Part shown: piece after piece, positions 1 through 44,568 of the stretch
Layout: each line of letters starts with the position of its first letter
How positions within the stretch are numbered: the stretch's first letter is position 1
From: a virus
DNA: 44,568 nt
Virus genome (UHGV): UHGV-0171754
Strand: one strand, 5' to 3'
Program-made: the position numbers and the translations under genes
Notes under the pieces: generated by a model
Seen by the model: the letters and a program-made list of their open reading frames with translations, nothing else
Database searches by the model: none
What the model was told of the DNA's origin: nothing

Positions 1-300
1 GGGGCCAATGACCCCCGTCTAGTCTGAAAGACTGGGCTTTGTCCCGCCTGTCCCGATCGGCTAAACCCCGCGGCAGCACTGGCGGGGACAGGGGTGCTGT
101 CCCGCCTTGTCCCGCCCCATTCTGTCCCGCTTTTTGTCCCGTTTGTTTTATGCACGAAAACTGAATAGATATTCACATTTTGGAGGCGGGACAGATCGGG
201 ACAGCACCCCTGTCCCGCTTTTAATTTATGCAATGAAAGTGAGTATATATGCTGTTTAATGGTGGCGGGACAAAACGGGACGTCCCGCCTGTCCCGCTCC
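1..300. repeat. Element A: dense array of about 13 GTCCCGC / GCGGGAC heptamers in both orientations, following the junction hairpin
   Basis: Copies at about 41-47, 50-56, 83-90(rc), 99-106, 110-116, 124-130, 136-142, 186-193(rc), 197-203(rc), 212-218, 265-272(rc), 277-283(rc), 291-297; no ORF of note on either strand. Confidence 0.8.
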
Positions 301-5857: not shown

Positions 5858-5902
5858 TGCACTGCGGGAATTGGTTGCGCTATATTGGTTGCACACCAAC
5901 AA
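5858..5902 (+). promoter_or_regulatory. Sigma70-like promoter (TTGCAC-18-TATATT) with two TTGGTTGC octamers and a TTGGT-N5-ACCAA palindrome over the start site
   Basis: -35 at 5858-5863, -10 at 5884-5889, octamers at 5874-5881 and 5888-5895, palindrome at 5888-5902; near-identical to the leader at 15946-15960. Confidence 0.5.
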
Positions 5903-11814: not shown

Positions 11815-12957
11815 TTACTTCAACATTTCCGGGCTAATGGTTAAGCGCGCTACTTCGCCGTAGTTGGCGCTATAGGTGATGACGTTTGCGCTGCGACCGG
11901 ACATCCAACCGCCACGACTGGCGTAGGCGTCTTTCGCTGCGAGCGTCCGGTGCTGTTCAACAATCATGTTGCGAGACTCGACAATCTTCTGGTGGTGCAA
12001 ATGACCTACGTGCGCGTAGCTGTATTCGCTTGACCCGAACGCCTGTCTGAATTTAGCGATCATAACCTGCTCGATAGCATCGAATCGCGCTTTGTGCCCG
12101 TGGTGGAAAAATAGCGTGGTCTTACCGTGCTGCACCATTTTGTAGACGTCCGGGGACGTATCCACATCGACGCGCGGCTCGTTCTCGTACAGCGTGTTGA
12201 ACATCTCAGCAAGCCAAATCATGCCCGACTCGTCATGATTACCCTGGACGATTAGCAGTTTGACTTTGTGGTGTTTTTGCAGCGCCAGGTCTACCACGTT
12301 GCGCACCATGCGAATCATGTAGCGGACCAACTTCTGGTATCTGGTGTCAGCGTCAAGTACGTGACCGCTTGCCGGTGTGACGGCATCAAGGCTATCAAAG
12401 TGCGCCATATCGCCGAGGATATTGATCACGGCAGTGCCTGCGTCTGGTGCGCGTGCGAAGGCTTCGACAAACCAGCGGTAGAACAGGTCTTCGGCGATCG
12501 CCATATCCCAGTCTTCGCCAGTCTCCTCGCCCCATGCCAACATGCCCAGGTGGAAGTCTGACACGGTGTACAGGTTGAGCAAGTCAAGCGCCTGGATCGG
12601 TACTGGAGGGGATTTTACTGGCGCTGCCGGTGTGATTTCGCTGTTCATACCCTCGACAACAGCGCGCATGGCTTCGAGTTGGCGCTCCTTGTCCTGCTCA
12701 GTGATGACCCACGACATGACCTCTTCGCCATTGCCGCGCACCAAGGCAGATACGCGCTTAACACCGAAGCCATCAGCAACGCGCTTGCGGATTACGGTAT
12801 CATTGCCGTGTCCAATGCCTTTTTTCGACAGGCGGGCTTTCCGCATGTAGACGTTTCGGAGGGCAATACCGTATTTCTTCGCAATCTCTTTAACCGTAGT
12901 CCCTGCCTGAATTTCTGCGATCAATTGCTCATCGGTAATTTTAGTTTGCGGGTGCAT
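11815..12957 (-). CDS. Calcineurin-like metallophosphoesterase with N-terminal helix-turn-helix domain
   Basis: 380 aa; HTH-like TVKEIAKKYGIALRNVYMRKARL; phosphoesterase motifs SDFHLG, GDMAHFD, GNHDE, HHGHK, GHLHH. Confidence 0.7.
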   Translation of the reverse strand: MHPQTKITDEQLIAEIQAGTTVKEIAKKYGIALRNVYMRKARLSKKGIGHGNDTVIRKRVADGFGVKRVSALVRGNGEEVMSWVITEQDKERQLEAMRAVVEGMNSEITPAAPVKSPPVPIQALDLLNLYTVSDFHLGMLAWGEETGEDWDMAIAEDLFYRWFVEAFARAPDAGTAVINILGDMAHFDSLDAVTPASGHVLDADTRYQKLVRYMIRMVRNVVDLALQKHHKVKLLIVQGNHDESGMIWLAEMFNTLYENEPRVDVDTSPDVYKMVQHGKTTLFFHHGHKARFDAIEQVMIAKFRQAFGSSEYSYAHVGHLHHQKIVESRNMIVEQHRTLAAKDAYASRGGWMSGRSANVITYSANYGEVARLTISPEMLK

Positions 12958-15624: not shown

Positions 15625-15930
15625 TTATTTCGCAAGCCGGGCAAATAGTTCGCGCTGGGCTTTAATCCGGGCGACGTTTGCCACTGCCGTCTCACCGATC
15701 CCGAAGCGATACGCCAGGCGCTCGCGGGAGAATGCCTGCGCGTATGCATGGATGGCCTTACGCAACGGCCTCAGTTCGTCCATGCTGGCGCCCATACCGT
15801 AAAGCGCGCTGCGAAGTGATTGATGCGCCAGTATCGCTACCTGAAGCGCCGAGTCTACGTTGCTGTTTAGTGCCTTCGCTTCGTCCAGCTTTGCCACGGC
15901 CAGGGAGTAATTCCAGATAATCGCTTTCAT
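15625..15930 (-). CDS. Putative HTH regulator, first gene of the leftward regulatory/lysis operon
   Basis: 101 aa; GAGGA RBS; C-terminal segment FGIGETAVANVARIKAQRE resembles a helix-turn-helix; promoter/operator immediately upstream. Confidence 0.5.
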   Translation of the reverse strand: MKAIIWNYSLAVAKLDEAKALNSNVDSALQVAILAHQSLRSALYGMGASMDELRPLRKAIHAYAQAFSRERLAYRFGIGETAVANVARIKAQRELFARLAK

Positions 15931-15945
15931 TGTTCAGTCCTCATG

Positions 15946-15995
15946 TTGGTGTGCAACCAATATATCAGGGTGCCAGGCGGGGCGCAACCAATATT
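15946..15995 (-). promoter_or_regulatory. Promoter with extended -10 (TGaTATATT), two TTGGTTGC octamers and TTGGT-N5-ACCAA operator
   Basis: Minus-strand reading attggttgcgccccgcctggcaccctgatatattggttgcacaccaacatgagga ATG; leader nearly identical to 5884-5910. Confidence 0.5.
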
Positions 15996-16145
15996 AATCA
16001 CGCGCATGAAAAAGTCGATCGCTATCTGCTGCAACTGCAAACCGCATTTTTCACCCCCCATTCTGCAACTTGCATTGGTTGCCTAGTTCAGCGACGACCG
16101 CAATCCGCAACATGCTGCCGTGTATTTTGCAATCCTGGATTTTAT

Positions 16146-16198
16146 GCAGTCTCAGACGAGGGGGGTGACAGACCCCCCGTCTAGTCTGAAAGACTGGG
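16146..16198. other. Element B hairpin: interrupted palindrome agacgagggggg-tgacaga-cccccc-gtct plus agtct-gaa-agact
   Basis: Same arms as the window-junction palindrome but different loop (tgacaga versus ccaatga). Confidence 0.6.
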
Positions 16199-16305
16199 GT
16201 GCTGTCCCGCTGTCCCGCTCCTCCCCAGGCCGCGTCATCCGGGGCGGGACAGGGGTGCTGTCCCGCTTTGTCCCGCCTCCTGTTTGTCCCGCTTTTTGTC
16301 CCGCT
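16199..16305. repeat. Element B: array of 7 GTCCCGC / GCGGGAC heptamers, homologous to window positions about 80-150
   Basis: Copies at 16204-16210, 16212-16218, 16245-16251(rc), 16259-16265, 16270-16276, 16285-16291, 16298-16304; block gggacaggggtgctgtcccgc...tttttgtcccg shared with element A. Confidence 0.8.
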
Positions 16306-16349
16306 TACTTTATGCAGTTTTATTGCATAACTATTCACTATATTTACAC

Positions 16350-16471
16350 TACACGGCAACCAATGCGACCAGCTAAAAACACTCAAAATGGCAACCAATG
16401 CGCGCAAAATTTAATCTCTTAGCGATATGGGAATTCCCATACCGGCAACCAATGCGCGCAAAATTTAATCT
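16350..16471. repeat. Iteron-like direct repeats (28 bp x2 plus one partial copy) with a 16 bp perfect palindrome between them
   Basis: ggcaaccaatgcgcgcaaaatttaatct at 16390-16417 and 16444-16471, partial copy ggcaaccaatgcg at 16354-16366; palindrome tatgggaattcccata at 16426-16441; the last repeat overlaps the 3' end of the primase gene. Confidence 0.75.
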
Positions 16472-18735
16472 TTCAGGTCGTCATCGGTCGCCGAAAGCGT
16501 GATGGGTATATTCGTTTTGATGACGATATTCGACGACCCATAGATGGCCCCAGTGTGCGGATCTGTATAAAAACCGAGTACGCCGCGCTCGACCATATCG
16601 TCGATTGCCTTCGTCGATGTGCCACCTTTCGCGAGTCCGGCCTGGCGGACAATTGCCGATTTACTGAATCCAGTATGGTCCGGGTTATCTTCCATCAGTT
16701 TTTCCAGGGCCGCATAAAGCACTTTCTCTTTTTCGTTGCGCGGTCCGGCGGTGTTCTCTTCCTTAACCGCGGCCTTGCCTGCTGCCTTCGCCTGTTCTAT
16801 AGCGAACGGTGCCAGGGCAACCGGTACGAGGTAGAGAGTCTCGTCGCGAGGCGTGGAGGCAATCGGCTTGACGTCCCATCCGGCAACCACGTCGCCGAAG
16901 TCTGGCCCAGTGCTGGTGGACTGGTGCGCCTCGAACGCTTCTGACTTGCGGAGATCTACCTTCACCTTGCACTTGAGCAGGACGAAGCCGCGCGGCGCTT
17001 GCTTGATGCCGTTACGTGACTTCTCATGATACAGGTTCAATTGCCCGGGCTGGTTGTCGTCCGGCTGTTCCAGGAAGAACGCTGAATCGACAGCACCATG
17101 CAGCGCGCCGGACCCGCGTGGGGTTCTGCTGCCGTTTGCACCCTTCGCCGGGTGGTGGATGACGCCCGCACTGCCACCTGTATTTTCCGCAATGGCTTTC
17201 AGCGCTTTGACCACTTCACCCATATCGCTGGCGTTGTTCTCGTCAAACGGTTTAGCATCGGCGGACCGCAGCGCAACAGTCTGGTTGAGTGAGTCGAACG
17301 CCACCAGGCCAACAGGTTCACCGTTAGCGGTGCGATTGATGAAGCTGATAACTTCACGCAAGCCGGACTTGCTTGTGATATCCCAGCCGCGTGATTGCAG
17401 GTCGATAATGTGCAGCTTGTCCAGGTCGTGCTCGTATTTAATCTGCAATGCTTCTTTGCGCTGGTTGGAGGCTTCGCCACCTTCCGCGTCGAAATAGAAG
17501 CAATGAGACTGGACGACCTTCGCACCGCCAAACGGAATACCGGCGGCAACCGCGCCCATCTGCCCAAGCACATAGAAAGACTTACCGATATTCGACTCGC
17601 CAGCCATGTACCAGGTCGATTTAAAGTTAATCAACCCCTCGATGATCGGGTCGTGCTTACTGAACAGCGCAACCGGCTCGTTATCCAGATCCGCATCGGT
17701 GCACACGCCGTATTCTTCGCCGTCGCCAACCGCATCAACAATATGTTCATAGCACGACTCCACTTCCTCGTCGTCCAGCCCCGGAAGGATGGCGGCGATT
17801 TGCTTACGGGACATATTGTGTGGCTCGACGTTCAGGTGGTCCGGGATCCCGATAAGACGTAGCGCCAGGTGCTGGTGTCTGTTCAGTTCCGAGCAACACT
17901 CGTTTCCGGTGTGCATACACTTGAAACGGATCTCGCCATCCTTAACCATTATGGCGGTGGACCCTTCGCCGCTGTGCAGATGTTCGTTCGGGCACGGCAC
18001 CTCATAACCACGCCCGGACGACAGTGGTTCGAATCCTGCCTGGAAGCACCAGTCCAGAATGCCGTCCGCCACTTCGTCGTCTCCCTTGGTTAGTTCGCGG
18101 CGTACTTCCTCTTTATCCACCCCCAGCTTATCCGCCAGGCGAAGCAGACGACGGACGCGGGCACGTTTGCCGTAATGACACTTTATTACAGACTGCTGGT
18201 GTGGCAGGTACATCAGGCGGTTTGTGTCTTTCGTGCAATCGTCGAAGTCCACATCTGACAGACCCAGTTGGGCTAACAGGGCATACTGGGCGCGTCCCAG
18301 GTCTTCAGCCGGTACAGGCTTGTCCGTCAACACCAGGAAGCGAGCGCAACGTGTTCCACCTTTCAGTGGGTGACGGTCGCCGGTTGTGGTGTGAAATACG
18401 TGTTCAAGACCCGCGTCAATGAACGCCTTACGGCAGCGGCGTAGGGTGCGGGTGTCGGTGCGGTCAATATCGAAGAACAGGATCGAGCGGTCCACCGCAC
18501 TGGTCTTACGACGCAATCCGTCACTGGTATACGCCACGATGCCGTCGGCCTTACGCTTGCGGCGCGCATACTCGGCTTTATCTTCCGTCTTGTTGATATG
18601 CACCGAGGAGATTTCTTTCGCATCATTGATAAATTCGAAAAACTCTTCGGTAGTCATCTGGAAGTTTTCCGCCCTGGCTTTTTCGCCTTTTTTAGCGGGT
18701 CTTGTTACGGCGAATTTAATTAAACTCATGGTCAT
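16465..18735 (-). CDS. DNA primase/helicase (N-terminal primase-like domain, Cys cluster, C-terminal RecA-like P-loop ATPase)
   Basis: 756 aa; Walker A AGESNIGKS; Cys cluster CPNEHLHSGEGSTAIMVKDGEIRFKCMHTGNEC. Confidence 0.7.
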   Translation of the reverse strand: MTMSLIKFAVTRPAKKGEKARAENFQMTTEEFFEFINDAKEISSVHINKTEDKAEYARRKRKADGIVAYTSDGLRRKTSAVDRSILFFDIDRTDTRTLRRCRKAFIDAGLEHVFHTTTGDRHPLKGGTRCARFLVLTDKPVPAEDLGRAQYALLAQLGLSDVDFDDCTKDTNRLMYLPHQQSVIKCHYGKRARVRRLLRLADKLGVDKEEVRRELTKGDDEVADGILDWCFQAGFEPLSSGRGYEVPCPNEHLHSGEGSTAIMVKDGEIRFKCMHTGNECCSELNRHQHLALRLIGIPDHLNVEPHNMSRKQIAAILPGLDDEEVESCYEHIVDAVGDGEEYGVCTDADLDNEPVALFSKHDPIIEGLINFKSTWYMAGESNIGKSFYVLGQMGAVAAGIPFGGAKVVQSHCFYFDAEGGEASNQRKEALQIKYEHDLDKLHIIDLQSRGWDITSKSGLREVISFINRTANGEPVGLVAFDSLNQTVALRSADAKPFDENNASDMGEVVKALKAIAENTGGSAGVIHHPAKGANGSRTPRGSGALHGAVDSAFFLEQPDDNQPGQLNLYHEKSRNGIKQAPRGFVLLKCKVKVDLRKSEAFEAHQSTSTGPDFGDVVAGWDVKPIASTPRDETLYLVPVALAPFAIEQAKAAGKAAVKEENTAGPRNEKEKVLYAALEKLMEDNPDHTGFSKSAIVRQAGLAKGGTSTKAIDDMVERGVLGFYTDPHTGAIYGSSNIVIKTNIPITLSATDDDLKD

Positions 18736-18739
18736 AGCC

Positions 18740-19069
18740 TTATTTGGAAGTTTTATTATTGCGTACCCAGGAGCGCACTGTGCTCTGATTAATTCCGGTC
18801 AACTCGGCAATCATCGCCCAAGATTTGCCCTCGGCGCGCAAACGGATAACCTGTTTTTTGTATTCTTCCATTTCTTCATTGTGCTTCTGCAGCTTGCTCG
18901 CCGCCGTACCGTTGAGCAATTCCAGCCTGGCGCGCAATTCTTTTTCGGTAAGTCGCAGACGTTCGATTTCAAATAGCACCGCACCCACGGCATCGGTATA
19001 CGCCCATGACCGGCTTGTCTCACTGCAAACAGTCTTCGTTAACATTTCGATTGCGTCGTTTACATTCAT
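18740..19069 (-). CDS. Transcriptional regulator with C-terminal HTH
   Basis: 109 aa; GAGGG RBS; C-terminal GKSWAMIAELTGINQSTVRSWV is helix-turn-helix-like; coiled-coil centre. Confidence 0.55.
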   Translation of the reverse strand: MNVNDAIEMLTKTVCSETSRSWAYTDAVGAVLFEIERLRLTEKELRARLELLNGTAASKLQKHNEEMEEYKKQVIRLRAEGKSWAMIAELTGINQSTVRSWVRNNKTSK

Positions 19070-19275: not shown

Positions 19276-19471
19276 TCACCCCGTCGACAGGATGCAGGAC
19301 GCAAACTGGAGAGGGGCAACGCAGGGGCCGGATCGAAGTGTCAGGATTCCCAACCGTGATTATATAACCTGGTCCACTACCCGAAAGGGAGAACGCGCAA
19401 CCAGGCAATATGTTAAGGCCACCGACGAAGTTAACTGCCGACACCTAAACTTAACCAATCGGAGATATACC

Positions 19472-20011
19472 ATGTTTGAGCAAATCGGAAACCTGATCAC
19501 TCGCGGCGTAGTAGCACTGGAAATCATCGCTAAGCATTATGAAACCGTTGGCGCTGCCGTAGACCCAAAAGCAAACGGCACCGCTAAGAAAGGCAAGGCC
19601 AAGCCGGAGACTGAAGTCGAAGACGACGATCAGGACGAAGTCGAAGATACGCCTAAAACGAAAAAAGGCGCGGCAAGAGAAACCAAGTCTAAAGGTAAGG
19701 CCAAAAAAGAAGTCGTAGAAGATGACGACGACGATGACGCCGATGACGTGAAACCAGCGAAGGGTAAAAAAGCACCGGCGAAAGGCAAAGGCAAGAAAGA
19801 TGCCGATCCGCTGGCAGAGATGCGCGACGAAATCAAACAGTATGCCGCGATTATCGCCGGTGGTGATGACGACGATGCTAACGACGAATTTGATGACCTG
19901 CTGGAAGCGTTCGAGATCAAATCGATCGCTAAACTGGAAGATGACGACGTAGAAGACTTCCACAAAGACCTGAAAGAAATCGTCGAAACCTATTTCGAAC
20001 TGGAAGACTAA
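19472..20011 (+). CDS. Highly charged low-complexity protein (acidic runs alternating with Lys-rich stretches), first gene of rightward early operon
   Basis: 179 aa from ATG (MFEQIGNLITRG) with GGAGA RBS; segments EVEDDDQDEVEDT, VVEDDDDDDADDV, KPAKGKKAPAKGKGKK, GGDDDDANDEFDD; terminator follows. Confidence 0.65.
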   Translation: MFEQIGNLITRGVVALEIIAKHYETVGAAVDPKANGTAKKGKAKPETEVEDDDQDEVEDTPKTKKGAARETKSKGKAKKEVVEDDDDDDADDVKPAKGKKAPAKGKGKKDADPLAEMRDEIKQYAAIIAGGDDDDANDEFDDLLEAFEIKSIAKLEDDDVEDFHKDLKEIVETYFELED

Positions 20012-22195: not shown

Positions 22196-22912
22196 ATGGC
22201 TAAAGTCAACCTGAAAAATGTGCGCGTATGTTTCCTTAAAATTTGGGAACGTGATACCCCTAAACAGGATGGACAAAAACCGGCATACCGTGCAGTGATT
22301 CTTCTTGATAAAGAAGATCCGCAGGTGGACAAAGTGGAAGCGGCAGCGCGCGCAGTGCTCACCGACAAGCTGAAATCCGAGAAGAATGCTGATAAGTGGA
22401 TGGACCGCCACTACGCCCAGGATTCTAAGGAATGCGCAGTCCGCGACGGTGACGAGCGCGACGAAGTAACCGAAGAATTCGAAGGCATGTTGTACATCAA
22501 CGCTAAATCGTTCAAACAGCCAAACATTCAAACGTCACTCGGCGAGAAGCAGACTGAACAAGGTCTGACCGTAGAAGGCGACGAGATCGAAGGCCAGGAG
22601 ATCTACTCCGGTTGTTATTGCAACGTGTCCCTGGATATTTGGGCGTGGAACAATACCAACGGCAAGGGACTCGGTGCCGGTCTTTTGGGTCTGCGCTTCC
22701 GCGATGACGGCGAAGCCTTCGGCGGTGGCGGATCTTCTTGCTCCGACGAAGACCTGGGCGACGACGACGAAGATGAAGTGCCACGCAAGTCCAAAAAGTC
22801 AAAACGTCGTGATGACGATGACGAAGATGAAAAACCTCGTAAACGTCGTAAGCCACGCGATGACGAAGATGATGACGACGACGAAGCGCCACGTAAACGT
22901 CGCCGCCGTTAA
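22196..22912 (+). CDS. Putative ssDNA-binding protein (resembles DUF2815) with charged low-complexity C-terminal tail
   Basis: 238 aa from ATG (MAKVNLKNVRVCF) with GAGGA RBS; lies between the Cas4-like nuclease and DNA polymerase; tail DDDEDEVPRKSKKSKRRDDDDEDEKPRKRRKPRDDEDDDDDEAPRKRRRR. Confidence 0.55.
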   Translation: MAKVNLKNVRVCFLKIWERDTPKQDGQKPAYRAVILLDKEDPQVDKVEAAARAVLTDKLKSEKNADKWMDRHYAQDSKECAVRDGDERDEVTEEFEGMLYINAKSFKQPNIQTSLGEKQTEQGLTVEGDEIEGQEIYSGCYCNVSLDIWAWNNTNGKGLGAGLLGLRFRDDGEAFGGGGSSCSDEDLGDDDEDEVPRKSKKSKRRDDDDEDEKPRKRRKPRDDEDDDDDEAPRKRRRR

Positions 22913-32496: not shown

Positions 32497-34320
32497 TTAT
32501 TTCTCCGCCAACTTACTTTCCAAAGCCTCAACCTTCGCCGCCAAATGCTGAACAGTCGCGACAAGGTCAAGTAACAGGACGTTTTCATCTAATGCCAGAA
32601 ACTCTTTACCAGTTGCGTCGGCGTACTTGCGAACATACTGCGGGTCGATCTCTTCCAACTGCTGCGCGATAAAACCACGTCTGACTGTCTCCTTTTTGTC
32701 GTAATTATAGACAAAGGAAGAGTATTCCATTGCCATAACGTTATCGAACGCAACTTGAGTGTCGATCCTGGCGATATCATGCTTCAGCGCCCTGTCGGAT
32801 ACCGGGGATTTTGCGAAAATATATCCAACCGACCCAGCGTTGTTGCCGAAGGTAATATCGTATGACTCGGCGTTAAAGGTAGTATTCCGAACTATATCGG
32901 CGTTAGGCTGCAGTCCAGTCGCCAGATCATAGTCAAAGACCTGCGAAATCATAGCGTGAGGGTGTGATGACCCCGCAACGGGGTGAATCAACGCCCCGAA
33001 CGAAATGAAGTTACGCCACCCACCACCCGCCGTGCCCGCGCCACCACCAATAAAACCTACGTGGCCCGCGTACTGGCTGTCCATCCAGGTATTAGGAAGG
33101 GTCGCGTAGGTATTAACAGGCGACGCAGAAATGGACGATGGCCTCAATGCTTTATAAAAAATAAGCCTACCATCATATTTAAAGTCCCACGACGGCGAGT
33201 TCACCGGGTCGAGGACGTTAACGGTCGCCAAACGGGTCCAGGCGTCTACGTTATTACGCCCCTGAAGCTGAATCGACGTTCTGTATTTTTCGGCCCCAGC
33301 AACGGTCACAGATGAGTCGAATCTACCGCCGTATACTTCTGCGCCATTCGCCAGATCTGAAGCGTAATTATTGCGTAAACCCCAAATCCCCACGTCATCA
33401 AGACCGCGCCACACCCACCCTTTAGTCGCAGAGTCAAGAGGGTCGACTGGGTCCGCGCCTACGCGAAGCGGTCCTGACGGCATAAGGTTAGCCCACGACG
33501 CACTTTTGTCCGCAAGCCCGGCGAGGTTGCCGGATTTGGTTAGCAGATTGTCGGGGTTTACGCTTTGCGCCCATTCTTCGGCCTGATCGCGAAATCCCTG
33601 CGCGGCAGTGCTGGCGGCTTGCGCTTCAGCCTTCGCGGCGTTGGCCTCGTCGCGAATAGCGCCGGTGTCAGTCTTGATCTGGTTAGTCTGGTCTTTGATC
33701 GCCTGCGTATCAGCCTTAATCTGATCAGTCTGCGTTTTGATGGTATTAGTGGCATCGCGAATGCCTGCCGTATCTGCCTTAATCTGGTTGGTGGCATCGC
33801 GAATGCCAGCCGTCTCCGTCTTGAAGCCTTCGGCCTCATTGCGAAATCCTTGCGCTGCTGCTTCAGATGCCGCGGCTTGTTGTTGCAGGTTGCGCATTTC
33901 AACGGGGTCAACTTCCTTCAGCAATTGCGACAGGTAGCCCCAGGACATACCCTGCATAACTTGCCCGTTCGGCAGCGTTACCGTTATTTCTTCTTCGTCT
34001 CCGAAGATCGCACGCCAGTTGTTTTCGTCCGCGATCATCAAGCGCAACGCTTTCTGTGCCTGGACGGTTACGCCCATCGTCGCCAGCGACATGGTATCGC
34101 GCTTAACACCATCCCACGCGAGTCCCGTTGCCGTGGGGCCGTCGAACGGCAGCACCAGCGTAAGCGCGGTGTCGCTTTCGACGGACGCGATCGCAACAGT
34201 GTATGGCACTTGTCCTACCACCAGCGTTAAGAAGTCGCCAGCCTTGAACGCGGTAAACGTTGTGCCGACGCCGACAACCGCCTTGCTGTTATTCGTTACG
34301 GATAGAGTACCCGCTGCCAT
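32497..34320 (-). CDS. Tail fiber protein with central tandem repeats and C-terminal intramolecular chaperone-like domain
   Basis: 607 aa; repeated ~10 aa units (GIRDATNQIKADTAGIRDATNTIKTQTDQIKADTQAIKDQTNQIKTDTGAIRDEA); C-terminal SDRALKHDI...YNYDKKETVRRGFIAQQLEEIDPQYV resembles self-cleaving chaperone domains of tail fibers and endosialidases. Confidence 0.75.
   Translation of the reverse strand: MAAGTLSVTNNSKAVVGVGTTFTAFKAGDFLTLVVGQVPYTVAIASVESDTALTLVLPFDGPTATGLAWDGVKRDTMSLATMGVTVQAQKALRLMIADENNWRAIFGDEEEITVTLPNGQVMQGMSWGYLSQLLKEVDPVEMRNLQQQAAASEAAAQGFRNEAEGFKTETAGIRDATNQIKADTAGIRDATNTIKTQTDQIKADTQAIKDQTNQIKTDTGAIRDEANAAKAEAQAASTAAQGFRDQAEEWAQSVNPDNLLTKSGNLAGLADKSASWANLMPSGPLRVGADPVDPLDSATKGWVWRGLDDVGIWGLRNNYASDLANGAEVYGGRFDSSVTVAGAEKYRTSIQLQGRNNVDAWTRLATVNVLDPVNSPSWDFKYDGRLIFYKALRPSSISASPVNTYATLPNTWMDSQYAGHVGFIGGGAGTAGGGWRNFISFGALIHPVAGSSHPHAMISQVFDYDLATGLQPNADIVRNTTFNAESYDITFGNNAGSVGYIFAKSPVSDRALKHDIARIDTQVAFDNVMAMEYSSFVYNYDKKETVRRGFIAQQLEEIDPQYVRKYADATGKEFLALDENVLLLDLVATVQHLAAKVEALESKLAEK
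33615..33870. repeat. Imperfect tandem DNA repeats (about 30-33 bp units) inside the tail fiber gene
   Basis: Units such as ggcatcgcgaatgcc(a/t)gccgt(a/c)tc(t/c)g and ctgatcagtctg / ctggttagtctg recur; encode the peptide repeats. Confidence 0.6.
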
Positions 34321-41842: not shown

Positions 41843-44485
41843 TCATCGTTTATAAAGTACACCACCCGGTTTCGTCGCCTTCACGATCTCGGCCTTCACC
41901 GCCTCGGTGATTTGCTTGCCGAACGCCTGCGCGGTACGGGGGTCCGGCCCGCTGACACTGGTATCCGTTTTACCAGTCCCCGTGTAAACGTTGGTCGTCA
42001 CGACCATACCACCGCCTGCTCCCGACGCGGCAACGCCAAGTTTACCGTCCGGCCCGCGCTTCAGTGGCATGATGGCCTCTGGCCCAGCCTCACCCATCAA
42101 TCCCGCGCCCTTAGCGAACGCCTGAACGCCATAACTGAAAAAGGTAGGCTGGCTTACCACTTTCCCCGAATAGGCCGCGAGATTGCCTCCTGCGTACGCT
42201 CCTCCGTCCGCATTCTTAGTTAGGCCAGAGAAGATAGCGCCGAACAATCCGTTTTTGCCGCCATCGCCACCGAAAGCGCTAACAATGGACTTGAATGCCT
42301 GCGATGTAGCCAGCTTGATTAATTCGCTCAGGATGGACTTAACCATATCCTTTGCGTTCAGCTTGCCAGTCTCGAAAAACTCGTTCATCGTGTCTTGCAT
42401 AGCGCCGAACGTGAATTTTGTGAGTGACGCCATCTGCGTATATCCGTTACCCATATCATCCACGCTATCCTTAAGCCCGCGACTGAATCCATCCCATAAC
42501 GAGGCGTTAGCGCCGGTCTGTGCTTCCTGCACTTCTCGCAGCTTAGACACCGCCTTGTCAATATCGGTATCGTTAGCGCCAACCCGCTTCAGGCGGTCAA
42601 TTAGCTGCAATTCTTCGCGCAGGTTTGCCGCTTCGCGAGTGGAAAGCGCATACCCCGCGGCGGTGGCTTTAAGTTCGGCGTTCTGGTTCTTAACGAAGGC
42701 ATCGATCTGCGCGTGCGCCTTAACCTGCTGCTCTTTCGCATCCAGCAATTTGGCTTCTTCGACGATCTGCTCGCGGACTTCCTTCACGCGCCCGAACTCG
42801 ACTAATTGCTGCTTTTCTGCTGCCGTTAGCGCTCTTTCTTTGCTCGCAGCGATTAACTGCTCATTGTCGGCGATCAGCTTGTTTAAGGCCGCTTGAGCGC
42901 GTTGCGTGCGGGTCTGCGTAGACGCGTTGGCTTCGATCTGCTTGCCGGATTCTCGAAGCTGGGCCAGTTCGCTCCGTGCGACTTCCAGCATTTTCATACC
43001 GGCATCCACGCGAACAGCCGCGGCCTTTTTCGGGGCTGGGTCTTTGTACCGCTCGTTGACCTGCTTAACCGCCTCGGCTAGTTCTTTCTCATCAATAACG
43101 CCGCGCTTATTCAGCAAATTGAGGCGGGCGATCTCGTCGGCGCGCTTCTTAGCGTTGGTGGCGTATTCCTTCTCGAACGCGGCGCGGTCACGGGCAGTGC
43201 GGTTGGCCTCCTCGTTCGCCTTTGCGGATTCGTCTGCGGCGCGGGCGTTGTCTCGCTCAGCACGGTTCCGCAGGGTGAGCGACGCCACCACTTTTTCCTG
43301 GGCGACCAGTTCGCTGTAAAGCATGTTAATACGTGCTTTCTGCGCTTCAGTCATTACCCCACCGGCAGCGTTTACCGCTTTCATCTCGGCATAATAAGCC
43401 GTGGTCATGCGCTGCAAGGACTCACGCGCTTTCATCTCGGACTCATTCGAGGACTGCGCGCGGCCCACATCCAGGATTGCATCCCACATAGATTTAGCTG
43501 CCGATGTGACGACGTTCATCGACCGCTCAAGCGTACCCATGTTGGACTTGATTTCATTGGTCATGCTGGTGAACGACGCAGCGGCTGTTTTGTTAGCCAA
43601 CGCAACTGCGTCTGTCTCACGACCCGCATCAACGAGCGACTGTACCTGCTGGATCTGCGCTTCGTTTACGACGTGATACTTATCCGCCAGCGCACGCAGT
43701 CCACCAACGGGGTCGGTTGACAGCTTCGCCACAGCCGCTACCACATCCTCGATCGGCTGGCTGGACACCTTCGCAAAGTCATTAACTACCTTAGCCAATG
43801 CGCCGAAGTCACCGCCCGCTTTCACACCCGCCGCCGCCAGCGCCTGGATTGTGTCACGCGTCTTGCGAAATGACCCGCCCATGCGCTCGGCGTTCTCGGA
43901 CAGCACCAGGATCTGGTTAGCGGTGAGGCCTGAAATATTACCGGACAGCGCCAGCGTCTTATTAAGCGCGGCGACCTGGTTCTCTGCCCGTGACGCGATT
44001 GCCACGCCCACGCCTAACGTCGCCGTTAATGCAGCGATGCCGATCCCTAACGGGCCGAGTGTGCCGACGACATAACGCAGCGTGTTTCCCAGTCCGCCAA
44101 ACGCCCCAGTAAGCTGCGGTAGCTGCTGAAGCATAACGCGGTGCACCGGCATACCCATCTCAAGCGTAACCGCGATATCCTGTAACTGGAATGCGGCATT
44201 CCGCGATGCGAATCCCAGGTTTTTGGTCGACATGCCTAATCGGCTGGCTAGTCGCTCCTGTTTCGTCATGCCGTCGGCGGCGCGCTGCGATTCAGTCGCT
44301 AACTTTTCCATTCCGCCCGCGGCGTCGCCAGTAACCTTTTTCGACTTACCGAGGGTGTCGTTTAATTTTTTGACTTTCTGTTCTGTGTTCTCGGATTTCT
44401 GCGCAAATGTGTCCAGCACAGTATTCGCCGTTTTAATTTGCGCGACGTCCGCCTTGAGCGTGATGCCCGCTGCCTGATCTGCCAT
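41843..44485 (-). CDS. Tail tape measure protein
   Basis: 880 aa; long Ala/Gln/Lys/Glu-rich helical centre; AAAAGGGGGA RBS; position after the G/GT chaperone and before M/L/K/I/J. Confidence 0.85.
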   Translation of the reverse strand: MADQAAGITLKADVAQIKTANTVLDTFAQKSENTEQKVKKLNDTLGKSKKVTGDAAGGMEKLATESQRAADGMTKQERLASRLGMSTKNLGFASRNAAFQLQDIAVTLEMGMPVHRVMLQQLPQLTGAFGGLGNTLRYVVGTLGPLGIGIAALTATLGVGVAIASRAENQVAALNKTLALSGNISGLTANQILVLSENAERMGGSFRKTRDTIQALAAAGVKAGGDFGALAKVVNDFAKVSSQPIEDVVAAVAKLSTDPVGGLRALADKYHVVNEAQIQQVQSLVDAGRETDAVALANKTAAASFTSMTNEIKSNMGTLERSMNVVTSAAKSMWDAILDVGRAQSSNESEMKARESLQRMTTAYYAEMKAVNAAGGVMTEAQKARINMLYSELVAQEKVVASLTLRNRAERDNARAADESAKANEEANRTARDRAAFEKEYATNAKKRADEIARLNLLNKRGVIDEKELAEAVKQVNERYKDPAPKKAAAVRVDAGMKMLEVARSELAQLRESGKQIEANASTQTRTQRAQAALNKLIADNEQLIAASKERALTAAEKQQLVEFGRVKEVREQIVEEAKLLDAKEQQVKAHAQIDAFVKNQNAELKATAAGYALSTREAANLREELQLIDRLKRVGANDTDIDKAVSKLREVQEAQTGANASLWDGFSRGLKDSVDDMGNGYTQMASLTKFTFGAMQDTMNEFFETGKLNAKDMVKSILSELIKLATSQAFKSIVSAFGGDGGKNGLFGAIFSGLTKNADGGAYAGGNLAAYSGKVVSQPTFFSYGVQAFAKGAGLMGEAGPEAIMPLKRGPDGKLGVAASGAGGGMVVTTNVYTGTGKTDTSVSGPDPRTAQAFGKQITEAVKAEIVKATKPGGVLYKR

Positions 44486-44568
44486 TATGCAGTCCCCCTT
44501 TTTATGCAGTTGCCGTCGGTCATTGTATCAGCGAATTTAAAACAAACCTTATTCAGTCTCAGACGAGG
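44486..44568. other. Left half of element A: untranslated leader upstream of the tape measure gene, ending in ...cagtctcagacgagg, which pairs with window positions 1-30 to form a GC-rich interrupted palindrome
   Basis: End of window plus start of window reads agacgagggggg-ccaatga-ccccc-gtct followed by agtct-gaa-agact; near-identical structure at 16146-16198. Confidence 0.5.

Follow-up and report, generated by a model that had tools for sequence, protein, structure and literature searches.

Paired, lineage-specific repeat arrays in Dhillonvirus genomes as candidate origin iterons

UHGV-0171754 is a complete, circularly permuted Dhillonvirus genome of the HK578/SO-1 group, and the whole stretch of 44,568 bp was analyzed here (hereafter, "the window"). 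Gene order, taken from the list of open reading frames together with the SO-1 and HK578 annotation, is organized around a divergent early promoter region near 19.1–19.3 kb. Rightward from there, replication genes occupy the plus strand to ~31.2 kb. On the minus strand, a small helix-turn-helix (HTH) gene (18740–19069) lies upstream of a gene for a 756-aa primase-helicase (16465–18735), which is followed by small genes and then by the lysis, terminase, head, and tail genes, a series that crosses the junction between the end and the start of the window. The tail genes include a minus-strand tail-chaperone gene, with its stop codon near 302, and the tape-measure gene (44485–41843, minus strand, start codon at 44485), with the distal tail genes after it. 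Two intergenic regions in this series carry arrays of the same short repeat: region A, 384 bp between the tail-chaperone and tape-measure genes (44486–44568 plus 1–301), and region B, 534 bp between the primase-helicase stop codon at 16465 and the start of the next minus-strand operon at 15930 (15931–16464). About 159 phage records match the first 3 kb and the 15–18 kb stretch of the window at 80–95% identity, nearly all of them Escherichia/Shigella Dhillonvirus (EC115, SSL-2009a, HK578, SO-1, SECphi4, and others).

When the end of the window (CAGTCTCAGACGAGG) is joined to its start (GGGGCCAATGACCCCCGTCTAGTCTGAAAGACTGGG), the two form a palindromic module, an intact copy of which lies at 16147–16198. 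Since the joined ends rebuild this module, the window is a whole circularly permuted genome that was opened in the loop of the palindrome. We rejected a cos site or physical genome end at the window start: the same palindrome is intact at 16147–16198, and the terminase is of the headful type. BF9, Opt-212, and UDS3lw are reported as headful phages (for UDS3lw, PMC13348001), and the "cos" called in EE09 is located elsewhere than the window start. The original prediction, in which the array region began at position 37, thus has to be extended, with region A running on across the junction.

That prediction singled out a cluster of GTCCCGC heptamers, and the clustering is real. Counted genome-wide on both strands, the heptamer occurs 21 times: nine times at 41–297, seven times at 16204–16304, and five times elsewhere (10990, 24273, 25772, 26605, and 28179). 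If 21 sites were spread evenly, 0.14 would be expected per 300 bp, and the Poisson probability of at least nine is ~5e-14. The "about 13 copies" ascribed to the first cluster are correct for the 6-base core, GTCCCG, but the full heptamer makes up only nine of those 13; the core occurs 13 times in 41–296, seven times in region B, and 15 times in the other 44 kb. The seven further copies placed at a second locus are indeed exact heptamers. Copies occur in both orientations, as had been said, with nine forward and four reverse in A and six forward and one reverse in B, relative to the coding strand. Two strings quoted as convergent pairs are present, although they start at 185 and 264, not at 186 and 265.

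A better description of the site is the consensus RRG-CGGGAC-A, read along the minus (coding) strand, or TGTCCCGCYY when the plus strand is read; relative to it, the heptamer is one base out of register. Across all cores in A and B, the base before the core is G in 16/20 and the base after it is A in 18/20; the consensus also holds for 150 sites from eight genomes. Neighboring sites are 6–16 bp apart, mostly 8–16 bp, or about one helical turn. Those sites that do not run in the coding direction belong to the head-to-head pairs CGGGACGTCCCG and CGGGACAGCACCCCTGTCCCG.

In region A, the right-hand part (1–301) contains the array of 13 CGGGAC cores (41–297, minus strand), which consists of three groups of sites split by two AT-rich elements, with head-to-head pairs at 197–217 and 276–287. 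The first of these elements, A2 (140–181), includes the palindrome TGAATATCTATTCA at 162–175 together with TGCATAAA; the array sites flanking A2 on both sides point away from it, and its lowest GC content over 40 bp is 0.25 (genome percentile 0.08%). The second, A1 (219–262), also has array sites on both flanks, and its lowest 40-bp GC content, 0.225, is the joint second lowest in the genome. An imperfect, GC-rich palindrome of ~50 nt spans the junction, with its right arm at 1–36 and its left arm at 44554–44568. The left-hand part of the region (44486–44568) comprises this left arm, an extended -10-like sequence, TGATACAAT (44522–44530, minus strand), and the ribosome-binding site and start of the tape-measure gene.

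Region B is built from the same parts. Its array (16204–16304, minus strand) begins 161 bp past the primase-helicase stop codon and has spacings of 12, 16, 10, 15, 33, and 8 bp. The AT-rich element (16306–16352; lowest 40-bp GC content 0.225) includes TGAATAGTTATGCA at 16324–16337 on the coding strand, has TGCATAAA directly before the array, and is flanked by array sites on one side only. The palindrome at 16147–16198 has the same stems as that in region A and a different loop. Before the next gene, we read a promoter-like TTGCGC-17-TGATATATT, with TGATATATT at 15959–15967.

On the coding strand, the two regions therefore share a common order, a module that the original prediction missed. First comes the ~40-bp AT-rich element, with a TGAATAnnTATKCA palindrome, ending in TGCATAAA. 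Second is the site array with its inverted pair, followed by a short spacer and a tight final pair of sites. Last is the ~50-nt GC-rich imperfect palindrome, CAGTCTttcAGACTAGACGGGGG-loop-CCCCCCTCGTCTGAGACTG. Ranked by AT content, the elements next to the arrays fall within the top four 40-bp stretches of the genome (lowest 0.03–0.08% in GC content). Whichever strand is taken, the palindromes fold as DNA hairpins (-13 to -16 kcal/mol, with z between -3.5 and -4.5), with values of -13.4/-14.1 kcal/mol for palindrome A (z -3.5/-4.0) and -15.1/-15.7 kcal/mol for palindrome B (z ~ -4.4).

The repeats are already known as annotation. In the GenBank record of Sodalis phage SO-1 (NC_013600), the same two loci are entered as repeat_region "region A" and "region B," both described as containing direct, inverted, and palindromic repeats and as being similar to one another. 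Two further records carry a repeat_region without a label, and the annotators of HK578 labeled an inverted pair, CGGGACGTCCCGTTTT, as a rho-independent terminator. Our literature search found no paper that analyzes or tests the SO-1 region A/B repeats, no binding or replication data for any Dhillonvirus, and no description of a Dhillonvirus replication origin or gene-expression switch. What is new here is the switching of the repeated word between lineages and the conservation of the layout across genera.

Within the genus, a motif search in relatives, as had been suggested, found the enrichment also in SO-1, HK578, and LM40P1. Across eight Dhillonviruses, including SO-1, HK578, LM40P1, TH13, SECphi18, Kente, and EE09, the number and positions of the cores are constant and spacers vary, with variants such as aaaaag/agaaag and aaacaggagg/aaacatgggg/agaccagggg between conserved sites. 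Sub-arrays have also been rebuilt from fresh copies of the same word; the second group of sites in region A, for example, reads CGGGACAGGGGTGCTGTCCCG in the window but CGGGACAAACGGGACGTCCCG in TH13. Compared with the window, identity is 0.94 for core columns versus 0.83 for other columns in region A, and 0.86 versus 0.85 in region B, all values being lowered by deletions in two assemblies. The contrast between cores and other columns is modest because the regions as a whole are well conserved. In 15 Dhillonvirus contigs from IMG/VR, region A has 11–14 cores and region B has 6–7, wherever the region was found.

Between lineages, the word itself changes. Homologues of the primase-helicase group at 81–98%, 66–69%, and 43–49% identity, and we inspected the DNA 3' of the gene in eleven further lineages, seeing the layout where the sequence sufficed. 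Wherever a surveyed lineage has a full-length primase-helicase of the same family, an array of that lineage's own word lies directly 3' of the gene. Among the closer relatives, the word is CGGGACA in L014 (69% primase-helicase identity), GGTGCCA in L019 (66%), TGTGGCA(A) in L021 and L022 (68–69%), and GTGTGCCA(A) in L023 (69%). Among the more distant ones, it is ACTCGCAA in L015 and L017 (48–49%), GC(T/A)GCCAAC in L016 and L018 (46–47%), TTCCGCACA in L020 (46%), GGGGGAGA in Salmonella phage GRNsp27 (44%), and CGCCCCG in Edwardsiella phage eiAU (47%). There have been at least nine changes of word between lineages. The array follows the primase-helicase gene throughout, rather than a particular set of downstream genes or the terminase gene.

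Other parts of the layout are kept as the word changes. The closer lineages retain a central "word-GCACCnn-inverted word" (GGTGCCAGCACCATTGGCACC in L019 and CGGGACAGCACCCCTGTCCCG in the window), and several of them also retain the final pair of sites, followed by a long GC-rich hairpin that is nearly identical in L014 and L022. Most surveyed lineages have a GC-rich hairpin in the place of the palindrome, with a different stem sequence; in L023 and eiAU, the stem has changed on both arms and still pairs (GAGA/TCTC and GGGAG/CTCCC in L023). Phage eiAU, from another genus, carries a B-like region and also, before its tape-measure gene, an A-like one, and the two share a ~50-nt module made from eiAU's own word. 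Since both eiAU loci use that word, the two-locus arrangement predates the genus, and the loci switch word together. GRNsp27 has the B-type locus only, and a hairpin pattern scan for an equivalent of region A in an L014-like phage gave only a single match on the contig. No such array was found directly 3' of the gene in Jersey, K1ind2, or Bas75, which have partial helicase matches, and no comparable array was found 3' of the gene in Kagunavirus phages, which are distant helicase relatives; Jersey, Bas75, and the Kagunavirus phages have a divergent Cro-like regulator at that place instead.

The arrays are probably functional protein-binding sites of some kind. The original prediction took them for clustered sites of one sequence-specific protein, and the support for this part is indirect: orientation, helical spacing, conservation, and joint switching of the word all point the same way. 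Because sites occur in both orientations, recognition is likely to be of duplex DNA. Relatives keep the layout and change the word to other 7–9-mers, with A and B changing together in eiAU, which is the pattern expected if the arrays serve a fast-evolving, phage-encoded, sequence-specific DNA-binding protein; the pattern speaks against chance and against recognition by a host factor.

Four candidate readers had been named, three of which are disfavored. The small HTH protein (18740–19069; Pfam HTH_23/Sigma70_r4_2) was rejected, since its helix-turn-helix (SWAMIAE-TGIN-STVRSWVRN) is invariant while the word changes, the recognition helix STVRSWVRN being identical across lineages with four different words. 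Separately, this protein tracks another, invariant motif, ATTGGTTGC. The protein encoded at 15625–15930 (101 aa), proposed as a second HTH regulator, has no Pfam HTH match. The 22-kb L014 locus contains no detectable match to either this protein or the proposed phosphoesterase (Metallophos, 11815–12957), yet L014 uses the same CGGGACA word. The small terminase (GP3_package/Sf6-like) is uninformative as a reader because it is present in every lineage and diverges with phylogeny.

The best candidate, judged from gene position and predicted domains, is one that had been overlooked: the primase-helicase adjoining region B, the only DNA-binding candidate that always adjoins the array. This protein has conserved DxD/His motifs at residues 89/91 and 115/122, which we read as primase-type, a Cys/His cluster at 248–287, and an AAA_25/RecA-type helicase core with RSF1010 RepA as its best match. 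A predicted C-terminal winged-helix domain (residues 665–745, i.e., 16501–16743, minus strand) is its most divergent part: C-terminal identity is 52–62% versus 68–72% for the N-terminal 559 residues, and the C-terminal domain of the eiAU protein cannot be aligned. Nine positions are common only to the CGGGACA lineages, all at or beyond residue 562, as compared with four, six, and nine positions for control groupings, so that the residue-level signal is no stronger than in the controls; three of the nine (S693, T706, and S735) fall within the winged helix. In the putative recognition helix, proteins P0010 (word CGGGACA) and P0013 (GGTGCCA) differ from each other less than the window's protein differs from P0010. 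The array is physically linked to the 3' end of the gene, which makes the positional association weak evidence.

We tentatively favor, at a little under an even chance, the explanation that the arrays are origin iterons, probably read by the primase-helicase, with region A serving as a second origin or as a cis partner. Several copies of the initiator would bind the 10-bp RRGCGGGACA sites, placed about one helical turn apart, next to the AT-rich 40-bp element; their binding would melt this element, at which the RepA-type hexameric helicase would load itself. The adjacent 50-bp GC-rich palindrome might be extruded as hairpins, which are possible sites of priming or loading. The initiator would probably be the primase-helicase itself, contacting the sites through its predicted C-terminal winged-helix domain. 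A modular binding domain that recognizes duplex DNA fits the spacing of 8–16 bp, the two orientations, and the head-to-head pairs.

Two features typical of iteron-type origins are present. First, short sites are clustered in non-coding DNA beside the putative initiator gene, with seven there in B and 13 more at the second locus, A. Second, an AT-rich element (40-bp GC content 0.225–0.25), putatively one for DNA unwinding, is adjacent. Region B, directly 3' of the primase-helicase gene, would fit the arrangement in which an origin lies next to its initiator gene. Region A, which lies among the tail genes at a distance of 16 kb, would then function either as a second origin or as a partner site acting in cis; a location in the tail operon is odd for an origin. 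GC skew in the window tracks gene orientation only and is uninformative on the origin, and DnaA boxes are not enriched (32 found versus 26 expected).

The closest comparison in layout is with the Rep-ori modules of staphylococcal pathogenicity islands (SaPIs), in which 6–12 short (5–6 nt) lineage-specific iterons directly follow the rep frame and surround an AT-rich region, with opposite directions on its two sides (PMC9371898). The SaPI Pri/Rep proteins, including the fused PriRep5, combine a primase with a self-loading initiator-helicase that has a C-terminal winged helix (PMC9371898). The window resembles SaPIs in having a primase-helicase fusion with a predicted C-terminal winged helix, seven sites that begin 161 bp past the gene stop, and, in region A, sites that flank AT-rich elements oppositely. 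Sites pointing in opposite directions around an AT-rich center are found at A2, whereas those in region B are on one side only. There are also clear differences. The Dhillonvirus core is of the RecA/RepA type (AAA_25), whereas SaPI Rep is an SF3/MCM-like AAA+ protein, with no sequence homology between them, and the window has a second array 16 kb away and a large GC-rich palindrome. By analogy, the Dhillonvirus module may work like a SaPI Rep-ori, but it is not a member of that family.

A second comparison is with satellite P4. From the work of Ziegelin et al. and of Flensburg & Calendar, the P4 alpha protein is said to be a primase-helicase with a C-terminal, origin-binding winged helix. Alpha reportedly binds the octamer TGTTCACC in both orientations at two loci, ori and crr, both of which are needed in cis. 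The two P4 loci are 4.5 kb apart, one beside the alpha gene and the other kilobases from it, and there is no comparable palindrome. The likeness lies in two separate clusters of iterons with the same word, as in A and B here and, with another word, in eiAU. By contrast, P4 alpha is an SF3 helicase, and the Dhillonvirus loci are 16 kb apart, with one of them inside the tail operon. Homology of the primase-helicase to P4 alpha was rejected, and the comparison is kept as an analogy: the Dhillonvirus core is AAA_25, not SF3, and P4 alpha chains were absent both from the PDB sequence matches and from the fold matches listed for the C-terminal domain.

In protein toolkit, the closest systems are the IncQ plasmids, which have a RepA-type helicase and a primase and in which oriV joins iterons, an AT-rich segment, and palindromic priming hairpins. 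RSF1010 shares the RepA-type helicase with Dhillonviruses, but its iterons are ~20 bp long, number 3.5 copies, and are bound by a separate protein, RepC, whereas the Dhillonvirus sites are ~10 bp; no RepC-like family was found in the neighboring proteins that were scanned. By analogy with the palindromic priming hairpins of the RSF1010 oriV, the 50-nt Dhillonvirus palindrome, which folds on both strands, may have a role in priming.

The strongest competitor is transcription control, which we consider unlikely but a serious alternative. Here, the arrays would be operators or enhancers for a lineage-specific regulator that acts in the early-to-late switch at two operon boundaries, B coming after the early primase-helicase operon and A ahead of the tape-measure gene and the genes of the distal tail; terminators or roadblocks would be formed by the inverted pairs and the palindrome, and the AT-rich elements would be regulated promoters. 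Both regions do lie between co-oriented minus-strand operons, extended -10-like sequences follow the arrays (TGATACAAT after A and TGATATATT after B), and by our reading the AT-rich elements resemble weak promoters of the form TGAATA-17-CATAAA. A position at operon boundaries, beside promoter-like and terminator-like sequences, suits a role in transcription no less than an origin. Nevertheless, a consensus scan found no sigma-70-type promoter in either region. As regards termination, the label given by the HK578 annotators to CGGGACGTCCCGTTTT agrees with this reading, as does the inverted pair at 197–217, which is followed by a T-run. This pair is the one terminator-like hairpin that a consensus scan flagged in the regions, a number no greater than that in shuffled sequences, and no U/T tract follows the palindrome on either strand.

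The number of sites also weighs against a regulator. To our knowledge, known phage activators use far fewer sites than 13 + 7, a number that would be excessive for transcription control. Furthermore, no regulator was found to track the word: the early HTH protein stays the same across changes of word, and nothing in the 22-kb L014 locus detectably matches the proteins encoded immediately beyond region B, although L014 has the same word. In all surveyed lineages, what the array accompanies is the primase-helicase gene and not any one set of downstream genes.

It is rather improbable that the arrays have some other DNA-level role for a lineage-specific binder, such as bridging or compacting the two loci (in a centromere-like form or by handcuffing), marking the DNA as "self," or titrating a host or defense factor. 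Two distant loci with the same word, co-varying, would suit such a role, and the comparisons across lineages singled out no reader protein. Centromere and operator heptad arrays bound by small ribbon-helix-helix proteins, e.g., omega of pSM19035, resemble these short repeats in both orientations. However, Pfam and PHROG scans of the neighboring genes turned up neither a ParA/ParB-type nor a ribbon-helix-helix gene, partition is not obviously needed by a virulent phage that packages by the headful mechanism, and the layout of AT-rich element and palindrome would be left unexplained.

Another, still less probable, proposal is that one lineage-specific protein bridges A and B or uses them serially, coupling the start of replication to late tail-gene expression, with the word acting as a code of "replicon identity." If so, word switching would stop co-infecting relatives from using each other's machinery. 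Such a long-range two-site control system has not been described for virulent tailed phages.

That the arrays form a packaging signal read by the small terminase is very unlikely. Terminase small subunits do bind repeated sites in other phages (e.g., cosB of lambda and pac of SPP1), the lineages differ in their small terminase, and several deposited assemblies open inside region A or B. UDS3lw is described as packaging by the headful mechanism from a preferred pac site, the position of which is not given (PMC13348001). The assemblies that open in A or B do so because the palindrome and the A/B repeat break assembly; the window itself opens in the palindrome loop. The one genome reordered with PhageTerm, EE09, starts near 29.3 kb of the window, not in A or B. 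In P22/Sf6-type systems, pac is normally in or next to the terminase gene, whereas here there are two loci, 4.4 and ~11 kb from the small-terminase gene, and the array is tied to the primase-helicase gene, not the terminase gene, in all surveyed lineages.

Least probable of all, and only a remote possibility, is an RNA-level element, in which the repeat transcript, GCGGGACA, and the hairpin would act as a structured leader, a processing site, or a protein sponge: most sites run in the coding direction (9/13 in A and 6/7 in B), a 201-nt region B transcript folds more stably than shuffles (z -3.1), and the L023 and eiAU hairpin stems change on both arms yet still pair, but sites in both orientations and perfect duplex palindromes (CGGGACGTCCCG) would look different in RNA, an Rfam search gave no family match, and the palindrome folds equally well on both strands, as expected of a palindrome that acts in DNA.

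Iteron arrays beside an initiator gene are a well-known kind of element. The Dhillonvirus arrays are a variant in having a second array in the tail operon, an attached palindrome, a RepA-type helicase where SF3/MCM-type ones are known, and a documented series of word switches, with joint change of the two loci. The palindrome, together with the A/B repeat, also accounts for a practical problem, genome assemblies that open, collapse, or turn chimeric at these loci. Dhillonviruses are common coliphages, with >150 genomes deposited, and have been used in the BASEL collection and in many studies of defense systems and phage therapy. If the arrays are origins, as we tentatively favor, they would provide a defined cis element for engineering and for plasmid-style replicons. 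The initiator would combine, in one protein, a RepA/IncQ-type helicase with a primase-like domain and a winged helix, working like the self-loading initiators of SaPIs and P4, which use a different helicase class. The lineages, with at least nine words, would then form a natural series of word/initiator pairs in which to follow how DNA-binding specificity changes.

Some elements at the array loci are kept whatever the array word of the lineage, the word here being CGGGACA. The AT-rich elements carry a palindrome, TGAATAnnTATKCA (162-175 and 16324-16337 in the window), that is retained where array words differ. A related sequence, GTGAATAGT, is found in Kagunavirus and in Bas75, in a promoter/operator region adjoining a Cro-like gene; outside the window, the loci with TGAATAnnTATKCA or GTGAATAGT are L006 (18066-18099), L011 and L013. 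Because the palindrome persists across differing array words and has this relative in Kagunavirus and Bas75, sequence conservation suggests that it is recognized by a conserved factor, of host or phage origin, that is distinct from the array reader.

Another such element, ACGGCAGCA, is on the minus strand at 16113-16121. This sequence itself also follows the hairpin in the related lineages L015, L016, L017, L020 and L022, and similar forms of it occur elsewhere. In most surveyed lineages, ACGGCAGCA or a close variant (e.g., TCGGCAGCA or ACGGCAAC) occupies the interval from the hairpin to the next promoter, independent of the array word. A conserved GATTTATAAGGAG-like element, consisting of a −10-like TATAAG followed by AAGGAG, lies in the interval that separates the central inverted pair from the final two sites in L019, L022, L023 and Edwardsiella phage eiAU (L069); Dhillonviruses have a GC-rich spacer there instead.

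Separate from the array word, a second word, ATTGGTTGC, occurs 15 times in the window (at 5870, 5884, 15419, 15953, 15984, 16074, 16356, 16391, 16445, 19260, 26350, 29292, 29309, 31223 and 34339). The majority of the copies checked are intergenic or promoter-like, and they are oriented with the downstream gene. ATTGGTTGC overlaps a −35-like TTGC, and also the leader TATATTGGTTGCACACCAACA, a perfect 21-nt inverted repeat between 5881-5901 and 15944-15964; the promoter/leader of the operon after region B, the array locus directly after the primase-helicase gene, also precedes an opposite-strand “moron” gene within the head-gene cluster. Sequence comparison shows that the L014, L019, L021, L022 and L023 lineages all keep ATTGGTTGC, and the small HTH protein (18740-19069) likewise has a conserved recognition helix in all five. 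Since word and helix are kept in the same lineages, ATTGGTTGC may be the operator of this protein, or else a promoter signature.

Repeats are also present within coding regions. The gene that opens the plus-strand early operon (19292-20011) has GAC/GAA-rich runs at 19613-19968, and the region of the gp2.5-like SSB gene has them at 22748-22896; at both places they encode acidic low-complexity stretches. Four imperfect 42-nt tandem repeats (33641-33829) lie within the minus-strand tail-fibre gene (32497-34320).

Many deposited assemblies start within or beside region A, the array locus between the tail-chaperone and tape-measure genes, and three open in region B, at approximately 16035. The first group includes UAE_MI-01, Kente, PNS1, Lzu_P3, BEK2-2, eiAU and IMG/VR contig 3300045988_009799, and the three opening in region B are PTXU06, Zar3M and PEC9; the window's own ends (1/44568) fall in the palindrome loop. 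These openings are likely to be breaks that the palindrome and the A/B repeat cause during assembly, not true DNA ends. Region A of Kente lacks ~80 bp and has a hairpin loop of the region-B type, and region B of EE09 is missing the segment between two GGGACAGCACCCC repeats; either inter-repeat recombination or assembly collapse could account for both changes. In eiAU, region A is enlarged to ~1.1 kb and includes an inserted opposite-strand ORF (42365-42718), which suggests that insertions can be accommodated in the gap that precedes the tape-measure gene.
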